Virus record (IMG/VR): IMGVR_UViG_3300037067_026010
Span: 128,001 to 192,000 of that record
Source: a virus
Lineage: Duplodnaviria > Caudoviricetes
Reading direction: 5' to 3' (one strand)
DNA: 64,000 bases
In this document: in pieces, positions 1-4,707 of the stretch
Layout of the letters: every line of letters begins with the position of its first letter
How positions within the stretch are numbered: position 1 is the stretch's first letter
The notes under the pieces: model-generated
Database searches by the model: none
The model's input: the letters and a program-made list of their open reading frames with translations, nothing else
Told to the model about the DNA's origin: nothing
Translations under genes and position numbers: made by a program

Positions 1-592
1 CGCTAAGCGTACTGCCGCTATTGAACGACGCCCCGGACAGATCCGCCGAGGCAAAATTCGCGCCGTCGAGTTTGGCGCCGTTAAAGCACGCATTTTGCAG
101 ATCGGCGTACTGAAACTGGGCACGGCAGGTGGCTGACGTAAAATCGGCGCCGCGCAGCTGGGCGAGGTCGAAATGCGTCCAACTGCAATGCGCTCCGCGG
201 AAGTTGGCCCGATTGAGCCTGGCTGTCGCAAAGTTGACGTGATGGCAATGCGTATAGGAGAAATCCGCCCTATAGCCGTCAGCTGCAGTAAAATTGCTAT
301 GGTCCAGCATCGCATCCCTGAGCTGGGCCCTCGAAAAGTTGGCCCCGGTGCAATCCGCTCCGTCCAGTACGGCTTCTGCCATATTCGCCGAACGAAAATC
401 CGTTCCGACGAGATCGGCGTAAGACAGCTCGATTTTTCGTAAATCGGCCTTCGGTAGGTTGCGATGGCGGAGTACGACATCCTCGTGCACCGTCCCTGCG
501 GCGGCAACCTCCTCCAAAGCTTTCCGCAGTCCGCCCGTATACTCGAATAACAGCTTACCGTTGCGATTATGAATTTGCGATATTTTAGACAT
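1..592 (-). CDS. Pentapeptide repeat protein (runs off window start)
   Basis: Manual translation from ATG at 592: MSKISQIHNRNGKLLFEY...ADLRK IELSY ADLVG TDFRS ANMAE AVLDG ADCTG ANFSR AQLRD..., tandem A(D/N)(L/F)xx repeats; AAAGGAAG upstream. Absent from ORF track because it lacks a stop in the window. Confidence 0.92.
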   Translation of the reverse strand, partial: MSKISQIHNRNGKLLFEYTGGLRKALEEVAAAGTVHEDVVLRHRNLPKADLRKIELSYADLVGTDFRSANMAEAVLDGADCTGANFSRAQLRDAMLDHSNFTAADGYRADFSYTHCHHVNFATARLNRANFRGAHCSWTHFDLAQLRGADFTSATCRAQFQYADLQNACFNGAKLDGANFASADLSGASFNSGSTLS

Positions 593-633: not shown

Positions 634-894
634 TTATTGCAAGATTTGCTGGGCTGCTTGCTGCTGGACGAGCCACTGTAGTTGCCCCCTAAGCTGCAGA
701 GTGACTTGCCAACAGACTCGCTGCCAGATTTGCTGGTCAAGTTGTTGGTGGATTTGCCGGTTGATTTGCCGGCTGATTTGTTGCTTGAAGTTGCACGGGT
801 CTTGGTAACCGATGTAATCATTGACTTGCTGCACTATTTGCTGCCGGCGTTGCCGGGCAAGTTGCCGCGGGCTTCGTGGTCTTCTTGCCTTCAT
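634..894 (-). CDS. Q-rich array protein 18 (last)
   Basis: 86 aa, QQI/RQI repeats, ATGA coupling. Confidence 0.8.
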   Translation of the reverse strand: MKARRPRSPRQLARQRRQQIVQQVNDYIGYQDPCNFKQQISRQINRQIHQQLDQQIWQRVCWQVTLQLRGQLQWLVQQQAAQQILQ

Positions 895-1124
895 GGTTTG
901 CCCTTCACGGTAAACACAGTCTGCTGCTCGATTGGATTTGCAATTCGCCTGAAGAGTTCAGGTACGATGCTCCAGCCGACGTGATCTGCAATTTCCGGAC
1001 TGACCTGCCGCTCGATTTGCGCCGAGATGTGTACGCTAATCGGTACCGCGACGTGCCAAAATTGCTGCATCGTTTGCCGGCGGAGTTGCTTCTTGAACCG
1101 ACGCTTTTGGCTTTTTGTCTTCAT
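891..1124 (-). CDS. Q-rich array protein 17
   Basis: 77 aa, ends FTVKGKP. Confidence 0.85.
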   Translation of the reverse strand: MKTKSQKRRFKKQLRRQTMQQFWHVAVPISVHISAQIERQVSPEIADHVGWSIVPELFRRIANPIEQQTVFTVKGKP

Positions 1125-1339
1125 AACTCGCCCTCCACGGTAAGGTCGGCTTGCCGTTGAATCCGCCGTGCCGTTTGCACCCCAATTTGCTGGTCAATTC
1201 GCTGATGGATTTGCTGCCGAACTGTCTCTCCGACTTGCTGTGCGACCGGCTGCCGGATCTGTCGCCAGAGCGGCGTATCGGTTAGTGGCCAGGCTTGCTG
1301 CTGCGCGAGCCGCCGGCGCCTCGCATTTTTTGTCTTCAT
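1121..1339 (-). CDS. Q-rich array protein 16
   Basis: 72 aa, ends LTVEGEL. Confidence 0.85.
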   Translation of the reverse strand: MKTKNARRRRLAQQQAWPLTDTPLWRQIRQPVAQQVGETVRQQIHQRIDQQIGVQTARRIQRQADLTVEGEL

Positions 1340-1542
1340 GCCTTTACCTCCAAGGTAAGTGCGGCTTGCTGCCGGAGCAGCGACTCAAACTGCTGCCGGA
1401 ACTGCTCGATTTGCGGATGCATTTGCTCGATATGCTGCCGGATTTGTCGCCAGACCTGCGGATCGACTGGTGGCCCGGCGTACGGCAACATTTGCTGTAT
1501 GGCCTGCATGACTTGCCGGTCCATTAAATCTACTGTCTTCAT
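1336..1542 (-). CDS. Q-rich array protein 15
   Basis: 68 aa, ends LTLEVKA. Confidence 0.85.
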   Translation of the reverse strand: MKTVDLMDRQVMQAIQQMLPYAGPPVDPQVWRQIRQHIEQMHPQIEQFRQQFESLLRQQAALTLEVKA

Positions 1543-1742
1543 GATTTAGCCGCCGTGATGCGCCAGGCCTGTTGCCGGACTTCCTGGTAGATTGACCCCA
1601 GGCATTGCTGTTCGATTTGCTGCAGAACCTGCTGCTCAACTCGCAGTTCAGCTGGTGGGCTGACTTGCTGCTCTACTTGCTGCCAGAGTTGCTGCCCGTA
1701 TTGCCGGCCACGTAGCTGCCGAGTTAAATCTGTCGTCGTCAT
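1539..1742 (-). CDS. Q-rich array protein 14
   Basis: 67 aa, ends ITAAKS. Confidence 0.85.
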   Translation of the reverse strand: MTTTDLTRQLRGRQYGQQLWQQVEQQVSPPAELRVEQQVLQQIEQQCLGSIYQEVRQQAWRITAAKS

Positions 1743-1936
1743 TACCTATCCTCCACGGTAAGTTCCCCTTGGCAGCAAAGGTGCTCAGCAATTTGCCAAT
1801 GGGCTCGCTCCAACGGTATCTGGATATGCCGCCACACCCGCTGCCCGAGGTCCCGGTCGACTTGCTGACGGACTTGCAGGCCGGCGTGCTCCACCAGCCG
1901 CTGCAGTTGCCACTCTATTTCAGCTTTTGTTTTCAT
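1742..1936 (-). CDS. Q-rich array protein 13
   Basis: 64 aa, ends LTVEDR. Confidence 0.85.
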   Translation of the reverse strand: MKTKAEIEWQLQRLVEHAGLQVRQQVDRDLGQRVWRHIQIPLERAHWQIAEHLCCQGELTVEDR

Positions 1937-2166
1937 AACTTGTCCTCCACGTTAAACTGGGCTTGCTGATAGACTTGCCACGCAACTCGTCGCCAAACGT
2001 GTTGCTCGGCTTGCCGTTGGAGGTGCTGCCATGCCCGTTGCCTAATTGCCGTATCGACCTGCTGCCGAACTTGCAAATTGATACACTGCTCGAGATTCCC
2101 AAGCTCCGCCAGCTGCGGCAGTTGCACAGTCTGCCCGTTTGGCGGCTGTAGTTGTCTTGCTTTCAT
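1933..2166 (-). CDS. Q-rich array protein 12
   Basis: 77 aa MKARQL...FNVEDKL; start reassigned to the ATGA overlap. Confidence 0.85.
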   Translation of the reverse strand: MKARQLQPPNGQTVQLPQLAELGNLEQCINLQVRQQVDTAIRQRAWQHLQRQAEQHVWRRVAWQVYQQAQFNVEDKL

Positions 2167-2387
2167 AAACGGTACTCCACGGTAAGCTCGGCCTGACGCT
2201 GTACGGGTCCCCGGATTTGCTGGATTTGCTGCAAGATATTCTGCTCGATGTGCAACTGCACTTGGGGTTGGTCGAGCACAGTCCTGATGAATGTTTCGGA
2301 CAAGTGAATGGCGGGCGTTATGGTCTGGGCAAGATCCCAATGCAGGGCCTGTTGAAGTTGCCAATGCCTATCAGCTTTTATTTGCAT
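2163..2387 (-). CDS. Q-rich array protein 11
   Basis: 74 aa MQIKAD...LTVEYRL. Confidence 0.85.
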   Translation of the reverse strand: MQIKADRHWQLQQALHWDLAQTITPAIHLSETFIRTVLDQPQVQLHIEQNILQQIQQIRGPVQRQAELTVEYRL

Positions 2388-2602
2388 AACGTGTCCTCCA
2401 CGACAAGGCCGGCTTGCTGCTGCACAGGGCGTCGGAACGGCCACCGGAGCAGCCAGGTCTGCGGCGCGACCTGCTGCTCGATCTGGTCTTGAACGTGCCC
2501 TGCCACTCGCCGATCGGCCGCACGCCCGACCTGCCCCAGCAACCCTTGCACCATCCCCCAGGGTTGCAGAATTTGCTGTACAGGGGTATTCGCTATCTTC
2601 AT
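2378..2602 (-). CDS. Q-rich array protein 10
   Basis: 74 aa MKIANT...LVVEDTLCK. Confidence 0.85.
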   Translation of the reverse strand: MKIANTPVQQILQPWGMVQGLLGQVGRAADRRVAGHVQDQIEQQVAPQTWLLRWPFRRPVQQQAGLVVEDTLCK

Positions 2603-2826
2603 GATTTGCCCTCCAGAACGCGCTGTGTTTGTTGCAGGATGGGTTGTCGGAGGTCCCGCATAGCTTGCCAGTCGAACTGCTGGGCAATCTGGCGCTGGAC
2701 CTGCTGCTGAACCTGTTGCTCGGCACGAGCAGCCGGGTCCCAAATTTGCTGACTGATGGGCAGTTCGACCTGCTGCCAGACTTGTTGCGCGATTCGCCGG
2801 GCAACGTGGCGTGCTACTGGCTTCAT
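2599..2826 (-). CDS. Q-rich array protein 9
   Basis: 75 aa MKPVAR...VLEGKS. Confidence 0.85.
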   Translation of the reverse strand: MKPVARHVARRIAQQVWQQVELPISQQIWDPAARAEQQVQQQVQRQIAQQFDWQAMRDLRQPILQQTQRVLEGKS

Positions 2827-3044
2827 AGCTTGTCCTCCACGGTAAGTTTGACTTGCTGGCAGACCTGCCACGAGGCTTGCCGCCATACCGGCGGCACGAC
2901 ATGCGGGGAGGATCGCGCACGATCCCGGACTAGGACGTGTTGTATCATCTGCTCGTCCATGTATTCGCCCCCCAGCGGTTGTGCCAGGACACGTTCCCAA
3001 ATCTGCTGACATACCTGCTCCCAGATCTGCTCAGCTGTCGTCAT
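2823..3044 (-). CDS. Q-rich array protein 8
   Basis: 73 aa, ends LTVEDKL. Confidence 0.85.
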   Translation of the reverse strand: MTTAEQIWEQVCQQIWERVLAQPLGGEYMDEQMIQHVLVRDRARSSPHVVPPVWRQASWQVCQQVKLTVEDKL

Positions 3045-3271
3045 GGCTTGCCCTCCGTGGTGAGTATAATTTGCGGTTGGACGACCGGCTTAATCCGCCG
3101 GGCAATCTGCCGTTCGTATAGCTGCACAGCGATGTGCGTGCGCAACGTCGCCTGGACTTGTTGCTCCACTGGATGGTACGTACGGCACCCAACCTGCTCA
3201 AACACTTGTGCCTGGGTATACTCCCAGATTTGCTCCCATATCCGTTGCTCAAGCCCCTCTGCCGTCTTCAT
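3041..3271 (-). CDS. Q-rich array protein 7
   Basis: 76 aa MKTAEG...LTTEGKP. Confidence 0.85.
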   Translation of the reverse strand: MKTAEGLEQRIWEQIWEYTQAQVFEQVGCRTYHPVEQQVQATLRTHIAVQLYERQIARRIKPVVQPQIILTTEGKP

Positions 3272-3495
3272 GGCTTGTCCCCCACGATAAGTGTAATGTG
3301 CTCGTGCATCGCCGCCCGGATTTGTTGTACCGCTCGCAGGGTAGCTTGGTTCCTGACCTGCCACAGCACTTGTGCCGGGAGCTGCTTACAGATCTGCCTC
3401 CAGATTGGATCCCAGATCTGCGGCGTGATCCGCAGCGAGCCGTGTTCCCAGGTTTGCTTCAGTATCTGCTGCTTGCGTATCTTTGTTGGCTTCAT
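3268..3495 (-). CDS. Q-rich array protein 6
   Basis: 75 aa, ends LIVGDKP. Confidence 0.85.
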   Translation of the reverse strand: MKPTKIRKQQILKQTWEHGSLRITPQIWDPIWRQICKQLPAQVLWQVRNQATLRAVQQIRAAMHEHITLIVGDKP

Positions 3496-3701
3496 GGCTT
3501 GTCCTCCACGGTAAGTTCAACTTGCAGACGGAGTGGCAGTTGGTATAGCCGCTTCACTTGCGCGTTAATCGGCCAACAGGTTTGCTGCAGGATTTGTACC
3601 CGGACCCGCTGATGCACTTGTAGCTCGTCCGCCGGCTTGATCGGTATCCTAAAGTCCCGCCAGGTTTGCCAGATCTGCTGCCGGAGCTGATCTTTTGTCA
3701 T
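3492..3701 (-). CDS. Q-rich array protein 5
   Basis: 69 aa MTKDQL...LTVEDKP. Confidence 0.85.
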   Translation of the reverse strand: MTKDQLRQQIWQTWRDFRIPIKPADELQVHQRVRVQILQQTCWPINAQVKRLYQLPLRLQVELTVEDKP

Positions 3702-3916
3702 GATTTATCCTCCACGGCAAGCTGGCTTTGTCGTTCGGTGTGCTGCATGAATTCCCGCATAACTTGCCACCAGTTTGGCCATTCGACCTGCCGTAGGGCC
3801 TGCCCGCGAATTGCCTGGTTAACTTGTTGCTCGATGGACCCCGAACACTGCTCCCAGATCCGCTGACAGATCTGCGGCTCAACCTGCAGCTGCTGTTGGA
3901 GCTGATCTTTTGTCAT
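3698..3916 (-). CDS. Q-rich array protein 4
   Basis: 72 aa MTKDQL...LAVEDKS. Confidence 0.85.
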   Translation of the reverse strand: MTKDQLQQQLQVEPQICQRIWEQCSGSIEQQVNQAIRGQALRQVEWPNWWQVMREFMQHTERQSQLAVEDKS

Positions 3917-4152
3917 CCCTTGTCCTCCGCAGTAAGCCTGGCTTGCTGCCGGACGGGTGCCCGGATTTGCCCTGTAATTTGCCACCAGATCAGCGACTCG
4001 ATTTGCTCATAGATTTGCTCCCGCACCTGCTCCGGGACTTGCTGGTGCACTTGCCAGGCGGGTTGCCGCCCGATCTGCATCACCAGTTGCCTCTCAACAT
4101 GACCCCAGGCCTGCTGCCGTATTTCCCACTCAATGTGTCTTGTTGTCCTCAT
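3913..4152 (-). CDS. Q-rich array protein 3
   Basis: 79 aa MRTTRH...LTAEDKG. Confidence 0.85.
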   Translation of the reverse strand: MRTTRHIEWEIRQQAWGHVERQLVMQIGRQPAWQVHQQVPEQVREQIYEQIESLIWWQITGQIRAPVRQQARLTAEDKG

Positions 4153-4355
4153 GGTTTGCCCTCCACGGCAAGCTGGCTTTGTTGCTCGATGTGCTGCTGT
4201 AATTCCCGCATAGATCGCCACCAGATTGGCCGTTCGATCTGCCCTAGGATCTGCTGGCGGGTTGTATAGTCAACTTGTTTCTTGACGGACCCACCGGCCT
4301 GCTCCAGTAGTTGCCATTCGAGTATTTGCCATTCAAGTGTCTCTACTGGCGTCAT
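4149..4355 (-). CDS. Q-rich array protein 2
   Basis: 68 aa MTPVET...LAVEGKP. Confidence 0.85.
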   Translation of the reverse strand: MTPVETLEWQILEWQLLEQAGGSVKKQVDYTTRQQILGQIERPIWWRSMRELQQHIEQQSQLAVEGKP

Positions 4356-4582
4356 CACTTGCCCTCCACCGTAAGCCTGGCTTGCTGCTGGACGGGTGAT
4401 CGAATTTGCCCTGCAATTTGTCCCCAGACCGACAGAGCGATTTGCGCATCGATTTGCTCCAGCACCTGCTCCTGGACTCGTTGGTGCGCTTGTTGCCGCC
4501 CGATCTGCACCGCCAGTTGTATTGCCTCGCAAGGCTGCGCACAGCACTGTGCGTATATGCCCAACCATCGACCTGTCTTCAT
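4355..4582 (-). CDS. Q-rich array protein 1 (first)
   Basis: 75 aa, ends LTVEGK; GGAGG SD upstream. Confidence 0.85.
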   Translation of the reverse strand: MKTGRWLGIYAQCCAQPCEAIQLAVQIGRQQAHQRVQEQVLEQIDAQIALSVWGQIAGQIRSPVQQQARLTVEGK

Positions 4583-4617
4583 AATTCGCCCTCCGCAGTA
4601 ATCCCTGGTTTGCAGCC

Positions 4618-4623
4618 ATTATA
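4618..4623 (-). promoter_or_regulatory. Candidate -10 box (TATAAT) upstream of Q-rich array
   Basis: Perfect TATAAT ~36 nt upstream of the first ATG; no good -35. Confidence 0.45.
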
Positions 4624-4656
4624 CCCAGCATTTTGCCTACGAAACTGCTGATTTGG

Positions 4657-4672
4657 CGGTGCTTAATTACCG
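4657..4672. promoter_or_regulatory. 16-bp quasi-palindromic motif, copy 1
   Basis: CGGTGCTTAATTACCG, intergenic. Confidence 0.75.
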
Positions 4673-4707
4673 CAATCCCGCTGTATTTGGCTAAGAGATA
4701 TCGTGGC

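Follow-up and report, generated by a model that had tools for sequence, protein, structure and literature searches.

Phages and prophages commonly encode proteins of the DUF6745 family whose tetrapeptide tracts change rapidly. In T4-type phages, short cassettes known as promoter-early stem-loops (PeSLs) have reportedly been proposed, by Arbiol et al. 2010, to mediate modular gene shuffling. A further described system is the tetrapeptide-repeat protein gp54 of mycobacteriophage Tweety, with its counterparts Che8 gp57 and PMC gp51, a mutationally tunable counter-defence against Phrann gp29/gp30 in which the number of AA-x-x tetrads tunes the counter-defence (PMC2884959, PMC9262239). Here we describe an array of 18 Gln-rich mini-genes from an uncultured virus of the Caudoviricetes, recovered in a groundwater metagenome and located in a 64,000-nucleotide stretch of DNA (hereafter the window) that spans bases 128001-192000 of the IMG/VR record IMGVR_UViG_3300037067_026010, a genome of 210,569 bp that is complete by CheckV. 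The mini-proteins match the tetrapeptide tracts of DUF6745 proteins, and the only DUF6745 protein of this phage lacks such a tract, a link to tract and tract-less core that was missed by the first reading of this DNA. The array may be a library of DUF6745 repeat helices, detached from their protein, for docking onto this one tract-less core, an interpretation that we consider about equally likely to be right or wrong.

A chained family of period-4 mini-proteins

The array consists of 18 consecutive open reading frames (ORFs) of 64-86 codons on the minus strand, running from window position 4582 down to 634. An earlier note on this DNA had described 18 chained ORFs of 64-86 amino acids (aa), joined mostly by ATGA or TRATG overlaps and built on a four-residue periodicity, and all of these features are present. 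The joints comprise 14 ATGA overlaps, two one-base overlaps (TGATG and TAATG) and one 10-nt overlap (g10/g11), and GGAGG lies 7 nt ahead of the ATG in 14 of the 18 genes. The base composition gives any one 72-codon frame a probability of 0.06 of being open, and all 18 together a chance of ~1e-22; with a median pN of 0.42 below the median pS of 0.63, this accords with the further claim that the open frames point to selection at the protein level. Long open frames are also present on the opposite strand, a side effect of array codons that are rich in CAG and CAA, while Shine-Dalgarno (SD) sequences, ATG starts and stop/start coupling are found on the minus-strand frames only.

The earlier note had also held the interiors of the genes to be very divergent and only the junctions between them to be conserved. 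The junctions are indeed conserved, but the interiors proved alignable as well: the 18 proteins align over their full length at 25-53% identity, and each matches the family profile with an E value of 1e-13 to 1e-28. When used to search the genome translated in all six frames, the profile built from the 18 recovered all of them along with four more members outside the window (genome 119556-120061, 122610-122834 and 125230-125472). Genome positions 107,700-127,800 hold ~55 further chained ORFs of 55-110 codons on the minus strand, the strand of the array, and an iterative profile search among these converges on 42 members (the 18 plus 24) with no larger gene drawn in. As delimited by these profiles, the family in this genome comprises at least 42 mini-genes and fills ~12% of the genome, and the 18-gene array is its promoter-proximal, most uniform and Gln-rich block. 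Many of the ~55 distal ORFs end in (V/I)xEQA(R), the counterpart of VxQQAxL in the 18.

In the array proteins, Gln makes up 19.8% of residues, Arg 9.1% and Trp 3.9%; in the large genes of the window, Gln is at 6.0% and Trp at 2.2%. Isoleucine, valine or leucine recurs at every fourth residue, with hydrophobic autocorrelations of 0.46, 0.47 and 0.42 at lags 4, 8 and 12 against 0.30 (s.d. 0.02) in shuffled sequences, and the spectral peak is sharp and falls at exactly 90 degrees and not at the 100 degrees expected of a standard amphipathic helix. Taken singly, 13 of the 18 proteins have a significant comb of this kind (P < 0.05), and the 24 extra members keep it (0.43/0.40/0.39) with just 7% Gln. 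AlphaFold2 (AF2), run with an 18-row alignment, predicts g03 to be all-helical, with helices at residues 4-27, 29-38 and 41-78 (predicted local distance difference test (pLDDT) 84, predicted template modelling score (pTM) 0.44).

Searches with the array proteins themselves yielded no characterized relatives. No family was found for them in PHROG or, for the eight proteins scanned, in Pfam; Foldseek with g03 returned nothing from the PDB at E<=0.001 (best E 7.6), a shape search of the ESM Atlas came back empty, and sequence searches of the PDB gave no meaningful match. The array had no blastn match in 50,697 phage records, and a protein search based on indexed words yielded nothing beyond proteins of the phage itself. 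Relatives in IMG/VR, sought singly with g03, the upstream 293-aa protein and the helicase, were not found, a tblastn search of phages with the helicase gave no match, and the profile of the 18 found no array of this kind elsewhere.

The mini-proteins match DUF6745 tetrad tracts

A search of 1.84 billion representative proteins with the 18-protein profile gave 391 matches at E<=1e-3, and the best of those that were not the array's own proteins were proteins of 350-600 aa, each matched in 3-6 stretches. Ten of the top 147 matches are array proteins; among the 137 non-self matches, 118 carry a DUF6745 (PF20530) C-domain and five more are N-domain fragments. The matches fall in the tetrad tracts, with E values down to 1e-25. 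The matched proteins share a layout in which an N-domain comes first, many consecutive x-Q-V-(W/R/G/E) tetrads follow and a C-domain, which is DUF6745 in Pfam, comes last. Array and tracts have a common register of Q, V/I/L and two variable positions, and several array members hold one register along their full length, so that the repeat type of the tract, a period-4 Q-[V/I/L]-x-x unit in a single register, is found in the array as well. PF20530 itself had no match in the eight array proteins scanned. The genomic contexts of two tract-bearing DUF6745 proteins are phage-like, and isolated phages and prophages carry such proteins with QL or SL tetrads. The literature searched contains no mention of DUF6745, PF20530, phrog_31813 or phrog_27831.

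Most of the remaining matches in the top 147 are to secreted proteins with acidic period-4 repeats. Five such proteins (P0034, P0090, P0119, P0130 and P0137) are without DUF6745 and combine an N-terminus that is hydrophobic and, by eye, signal-peptide-like with long acidic repeats such as (E/D)-x-(V/I)-E.

A tract-less DUF6745 core with a conserved neighbour

The only PF20530 match in the genome is P0152, a 312-aa protein encoded at genome 100734-101672 on the minus strand (E 1e-26; 90.5 bits against a cut-off of 27), outside the window and ~27 kb downstream of the array on the same strand. In alignment with the tract-bearing protein P0005, residues 2-113 of P0152 correspond to residues 5-122 and residues 120-299 to residues 352-537, and the ~230-aa tract is absent; residues 75-115 of P0152 contain no tetrad run. 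AF2 predicts P0152 with a pLDDT of 87.9 and a pTM of 0.80, and only the vestigial linker at residues 87-110 is uncertain. Its 77 closest homologues (identity up to 59%) are nearly all tract-bearing. Five short DUF6745 homologues that had been expected to be tract-less (P0223, P0186, P0227, P0160 and P0190) turned out to contain 4-8 tetrads. A tract-less relative is P0177 (L029:10001-11578), 50% identical to P0152, in which the tetrad tract is replaced by an unrelated insert of ~60 residues. For P0152 itself, Foldseek found nothing in the PDB at E<=0.001, and the best hit of a VIA wide search reached a Z of 4.7 over 66 residues.

The gene next to P0152 encodes P0156, which aligns with members of phrog_27831, the usual partner family of DUF6745 proteins, at 25-30% identity and shares their motifs QGDV, H.L, L.H.EHG, QRE and R.V.D; phrog_27831 was not reached in hmmscan. 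Proteins of phrog_27831 flank DUF6745 genes in Ma-LMM01 (gp175), in the prophage prophiGD102-1 (gp37) and at a further locus (L002), and at two others (L027 and L029) a near-identical partner comes right after the core, in the same order as P0152 and P0156. At L029 the core is P0177, with its P0156-like partner directly downstream. In the phage studied here, an 83-aa ORF directly upstream of the P0152 gene carries a period-4 comb (P = 0.002).

Predicted docking of a mini-protein onto the core

We modelled P0152 together with g03, using alignments of 50 rows and 18 rows, respectively. The complex scored 0.77 (0.76, 0.77 and 0.82 in separate runs), and the best of three controls scored 0.00; 58 of 80 solved complexes attain this mark, as do 2 of 110 mismatched pairs, a calibration that is only rough for inputs that were our own alignments. 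The runs share at least 88% of their contacts, with a pLDDT of at least 79 for the partner. The predicted interface involves nearly all of g03 and residues 1-25, 45-73, 95-145 and 155-200 of P0152, and covers both points at which the missing tract would be anchored (P0152 residues 60-73 and 95-145). Within residues 43-64 of g03, three in four residues touch the core in the model and every fourth is exposed. The pass is not a recall of a known complex, because no DUF6745 structure or similar complex has been solved. By passing its controls, the model supports, rather than demonstrates, that g03 binds P0152 in the cell.

If the array does supply inserts to the core, each mini-protein would be a degenerate stand-alone version of the x-Q-[V/I/L]-x tract that normally lies between the N- and C-domains of DUF6745 proteins. 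The mini-proteins would be made together from one polycistronic message, by means of an initiation cassette (SD plus overlapping stop/start) that forms part of the 3' end of each gene, and each would dock by its conserved Q-[I/V] face into the core groove where the internal tract would lie. The outcome would be many alternative core-insert complexes that differ in their exposed residues. By loose analogy with Tweety gp54, we would guess at a role as a host- or defence-directed specificity module. In a more far-reaching version, P0152 and its partner would accept any of at least 40 co-expressed helical inserts, which would form a cassette repertoire for one recognition or counter-defence complex and would have been born by duplication and by segment swapping at junction and tetrad microhomologies; we consider this version less likely than not.

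Several observations weigh against a docking library, in addition to the rough calibration. The match between array and DUF6745 tracts is a shared motif that does not prove common descent, because both are periodic, low-complexity sequences, and the tetrads of the nearest relatives of P0152 are x-S-V-x rather than x-Q-V-x. The contact residues are not significantly more conserved than other residues (P = 0.29), and the docking is a prediction, in a test that the separated halves of a single domain usually pass. The 18-gene block is not adjacent to the core gene: it lies ~27-32 kb away, with the nearest profile-confirmed family member at ~6.5 kb and others at up to 26 kb. Around P0177, no tetrad mini-genes are present on its 15-kb contig, and the association of tract-less cores with mini-genes is thus not a general rule.

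The distance of the array from the core gene and the tract-less relative with no mini-genes nearby would both fit an alternative in which the array is an ordinary lineage-specific expansion of small helical proteins with accessory roles of their own, for example as binders for host takeover or anti-defence, with a convergent likeness to DUF6745 tracts and no tie to the core. Such an origin would also suit proteins with no Pfam or PHROG match, and large tandem families of small uncharacterized proteins are frequent in jumbo phages, for example in Bacillus phage G. However, it leaves to chance that 123 of the 137 non-self top profile matches belong to one family, that the only DUF6745 protein of this genome happens to be tract-less, and that the complex passes when its controls score zero. 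We regard an unconnected expansion as less likely than not, though far from negligible.

The earlier note had further raised the possibility of prion-like co-polymers, for which we found no support. Gln-rich subunits that are produced in equal amounts and co-polymerize, as structural, scaffold or prion-like elements, would account for the Gln content of 20% and for a coupled translation that suggests similar dosage, but the Gln residues belong to a regular amphipathic helical repeat that prolines interrupt rather than to polyQ/N tracts, the AF2 helices are predicted at a pLDDT of 84, the extended family retains its comb at 7% Gln, and no head, tail or scaffold family is matched, all of which makes such subunits very unlikely.

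The junction is a nucleotide-level initiation cassette

Successive genes are joined by a junction of ~30 nt that closes one gene and carries the GGAGG of the next. Its consensus, CTTACCGTGGAGGaCAAg..ATGA, forms the peak of information content across the units, and a weaker second block lies ~55 nt upstream. The junction had previously been described as encoding LTVE(G/D)K while doubling as the SD of the following gene. The second part of this description holds, with GGAGG at its 7-nt spacing; the first does not extend to a protein motif, and g18 is without it. The Leu of LTVE is encoded by CTT in 12 of 13 genes, compared with 11% among interior Leu codons, and the Val by GTG in 12 of 12, compared with 25% in the interiors. 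The last gene, g18, which has no array gene to initiate after it, ends in QQAAQQILQ with no junction motif, and the leader ahead of g01 bears a copy of the cassette (CCAGGgaTTACtGCGGAGGGCgAAtt; window 4583-4612, minus strand) that lies outside any ORF. Because the leader copy is not read by an ORF, g18 does without the motif and the synonymous sites are fixed, LTVE(G/D)K is best described, at the level of sequence, as a translated nucleotide-level initiation cassette and not as a protein motif.

The synonymous fixation reaches past the SD to the CTT, 17-19 nt before the next ATG, where neither SD pairing nor an RNA fold accounts for it. No stable RNA fold was found for the junction (mean z +0.26), which leaves the idea of a hairpin unsupported. 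A search for the junction pattern gave no matches in IMG/VR. Seventeen single matches in metagenome contigs were discarded as chance matches, since none of them encodes a family member.

The fixed synonymous sites (CTT in 12/13, GTG in 12/12), the leader junction with no ORF and the dN/dS of ~1 in recent gene pairs could be taken to mean that the ~30-nt junction is itself the functional unit, as a processing, regulatory or recombination site in RNA or DNA, with neutral ORFs in between; 18 open frames (~1e-22 by chance) with in-frame indels, the retention of comb and Q-[IV] anchors across saturated synonymous divergence, the missing stable RNA fold and a conserved core that is an SD at canonical spacing from the start codon render this scarcely credible. 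As an initiation cassette that has been kept at synonymous sites while the surrounding coding sequence diverged to saturation, the array presents a clean case.

Old divergence and one recent duplication

Most pairs of array genes are saturated at synonymous sites, with a median pS of 0.63 and a median pN of 0.42, and long-term evolution has therefore been constrained, below the neutral expectation. The sole recent event is a two-gene duplication that relates g01-g02 to g03-g04 (window 3698-4582, minus strand), with dS values of 0.35 and 0.49. In these pairs dN/dS is 1.08 and 0.75 over the whole genes and 0.92 and 2.19 over their C-terminal two thirds, where they align well, and none of these values differs significantly from 1, so diversifying selection is neither proved nor refuted. 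Substitutions between the recent duplicates do not significantly spare the Q-[IVL] anchors (P = 0.68). Divergence is spread unevenly over the duplicated genes: DNA identity is 39-46% in the first ~20 codons and 77-84% beyond them, and the indels measure 9 and 12 nt, the latter corresponding to one tetrad. The first 19 nt of g04 are the same as those of g05 and its body is like that of g02, a mosaic that suggests replacement of a segment at the 5' end. The longest exact matches between units, located at the junctions, measure 14-23 nt; at this length, recent or ongoing conversion tracts are not visible.

These patterns bear on two claims of the earlier note. Its diversifying repertoire made in coupled amounts is real to the extent that the genes are translationally coupled paralogs that have diversified, and a dN/dS of ~1 in the recent pairs proves nothing either way. 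Its proposal that junctions serve as points of shuffling gains something from the uneven duplication and from the 19 nt that g04 and g05 share, but finds exact matches of only 14-23 nt and no recent conversion tracts.

Gene order and genome setting

All mini-genes of the array lie on the minus strand, and window coordinates are given here. The first, g01 (4355-4582; 75 aa), matches the family profile at E 8.6e-22 and overlaps g02 (4149-4355; 68 aa) by one base. The recent paralog of g01, at 53% identity, is g03 (3913-4152; 79 aa), the member used for folding and docking, and that of g02 is g04 (3698-3916; 72 aa), with its 5' end resembling g05 (3492-3701; 69 aa). There follow g06 (3268-3495; 75 aa), g07 (3041-3271; 76 aa), g08 (2823-3044; 73 aa), g09 (2599-2826; 75 aa), g10 (2378-2602; 74 aa), which has the 10-nt overlap with g11 (2163-2387; 74 aa), g12 (1933-2166; 77 aa) and g13 (1742-1936; 64 aa). 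The junction of g14 (1539-1742; 67 aa) is decayed and reads RITAAKS. After g15 (1336-1542; 68 aa) come g16 (1121-1339; 72 aa) and g17 (891-1124; 77 aa), both with basic N-termini, and finally g18 (634-894; 86 aa), which holds a single unbroken tetrad register over residues 10-82 and does not end in LTVE(G/D)K. The N-termini of g16-g18 are strongly basic (for example KNARRRR, KSQKRRFKKQLRR and ARRPRSPRQLARQRR), unlike those of the first fifteen proteins.

Beyond the leader junction copy, a TATAAT hexamer (4618-4623, minus strand) is a candidate -10 element only, and a consensus scan called no sigma-70 promoter there. A copy of the 18-nt sequence GCGGTAATTAAGCACCGC (4656-4673, minus strand) lies between the array and the stop of the upstream gene. 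It is one of 22 copies in the genome (allowing one mismatch within the 14-nt core), and its outer arms, GCGGT/ACCGC, are palindromic; the copies occur on both strands and are mostly intergenic, and one lies upstream of g01 and another upstream of a second Gln-rich pair (genome 120141). Because it occurs independently of orientation, the sequence is more suggestive of a protein-binding site or of a small hairpin than of a simple promoter.

On the other side of the array, a pentapeptide-repeat gene of 297 aa (5' part at window 1-592, continuing to genome 127699; minus strand) matches PF00805 at E 4.9e-31. It is a neighbour and not a member of the family: the array proteins have period 4 instead of the period-5 A(D/N)LXX repeat and do not match PF00805. 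This gene splits the 18-gene block from ~45 further mini-genes, placing a period-5 protein amid period-4 proteins. The window as a whole has ~57% G+C and carries nearly all of its genes on the minus strand. Its genes include those for a family A DNA polymerase that has UDG and LAGLIDADG parts, for a DnaB-like helicase and for an SMC/SbcC-like ATPase, which makes it the replication region of a jumbo phage.

Comparison with known systems

A tract that has been taken out of its protein and multiplied into dozens of genes would amount to a natural dissection, in which the tract is separable from the core for expression, swapping and assay. Should the docking hold true, the array would represent a new viral way to diversify one complex, by interchangeable subunits as opposed to changes in repeat number or mutagenic retro-homing, and would give a direct handle on what tetrapeptide tracts recognize.

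The closest likeness is to the tracts of DUF6745 proteins (PF20530 / phrog_31813), such as the (D/G)QL(W/R/G) tract of gp38 in the Mycobacterium prophage prophiGD102-1 and those of the metagenomic proteins P0005 and P0007. These tracts have the same Q and V/I/L followed by two variable positions, often W, R, G or E, are predicted to be helical, and are found in early or accessory regions of phages. In DUF6745 proteins, however, the tract lies inside one protein of 350-560 aa and is built of near-identical 12-nt units in a single ORF, whereas the array consists of stand-alone genes of 64-86 aa with their own starts and of more degenerate units, with prolines, register shifts and 20% Gln.

Tweety gp54 is likewise a phage accessory protein with central four-residue repeats and W/G-type variation at one position. 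It differs in its AA(G/W/Q)(S/Y) repeats, in its other flanking domains and in being a single protein and not a gene array; a scan of gp54 for PF20530 gave no match, and the array proteins, which have no flanking domains, are not gp54-like in this sense. The parallel is an analogy of design and possibly of function only.

With the lineage-specific families of small paralogs that have expanded in tandem in large phages and in other large DNA viruses, the locus shares dozens of tandem, co-oriented, diverged paralogs, amounting here to ~12% of the genome, and differs from them in being tied to a specific module of DUF6745 and to a candidate docking partner in the same genome. As in the T4-type PeSL arrangement, a short conserved regulatory cassette stands between diverged small genes and may offer microhomology for shuffling, but the cassette of the array is an initiation region inside the preceding coding sequence, with no promoter stem-loop, no stable fold and no long conversion tracts. 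Set beside published knowledge, the array is a variation on the tetrapeptide-repeat accessory proteins of phages and on phage multigene families.

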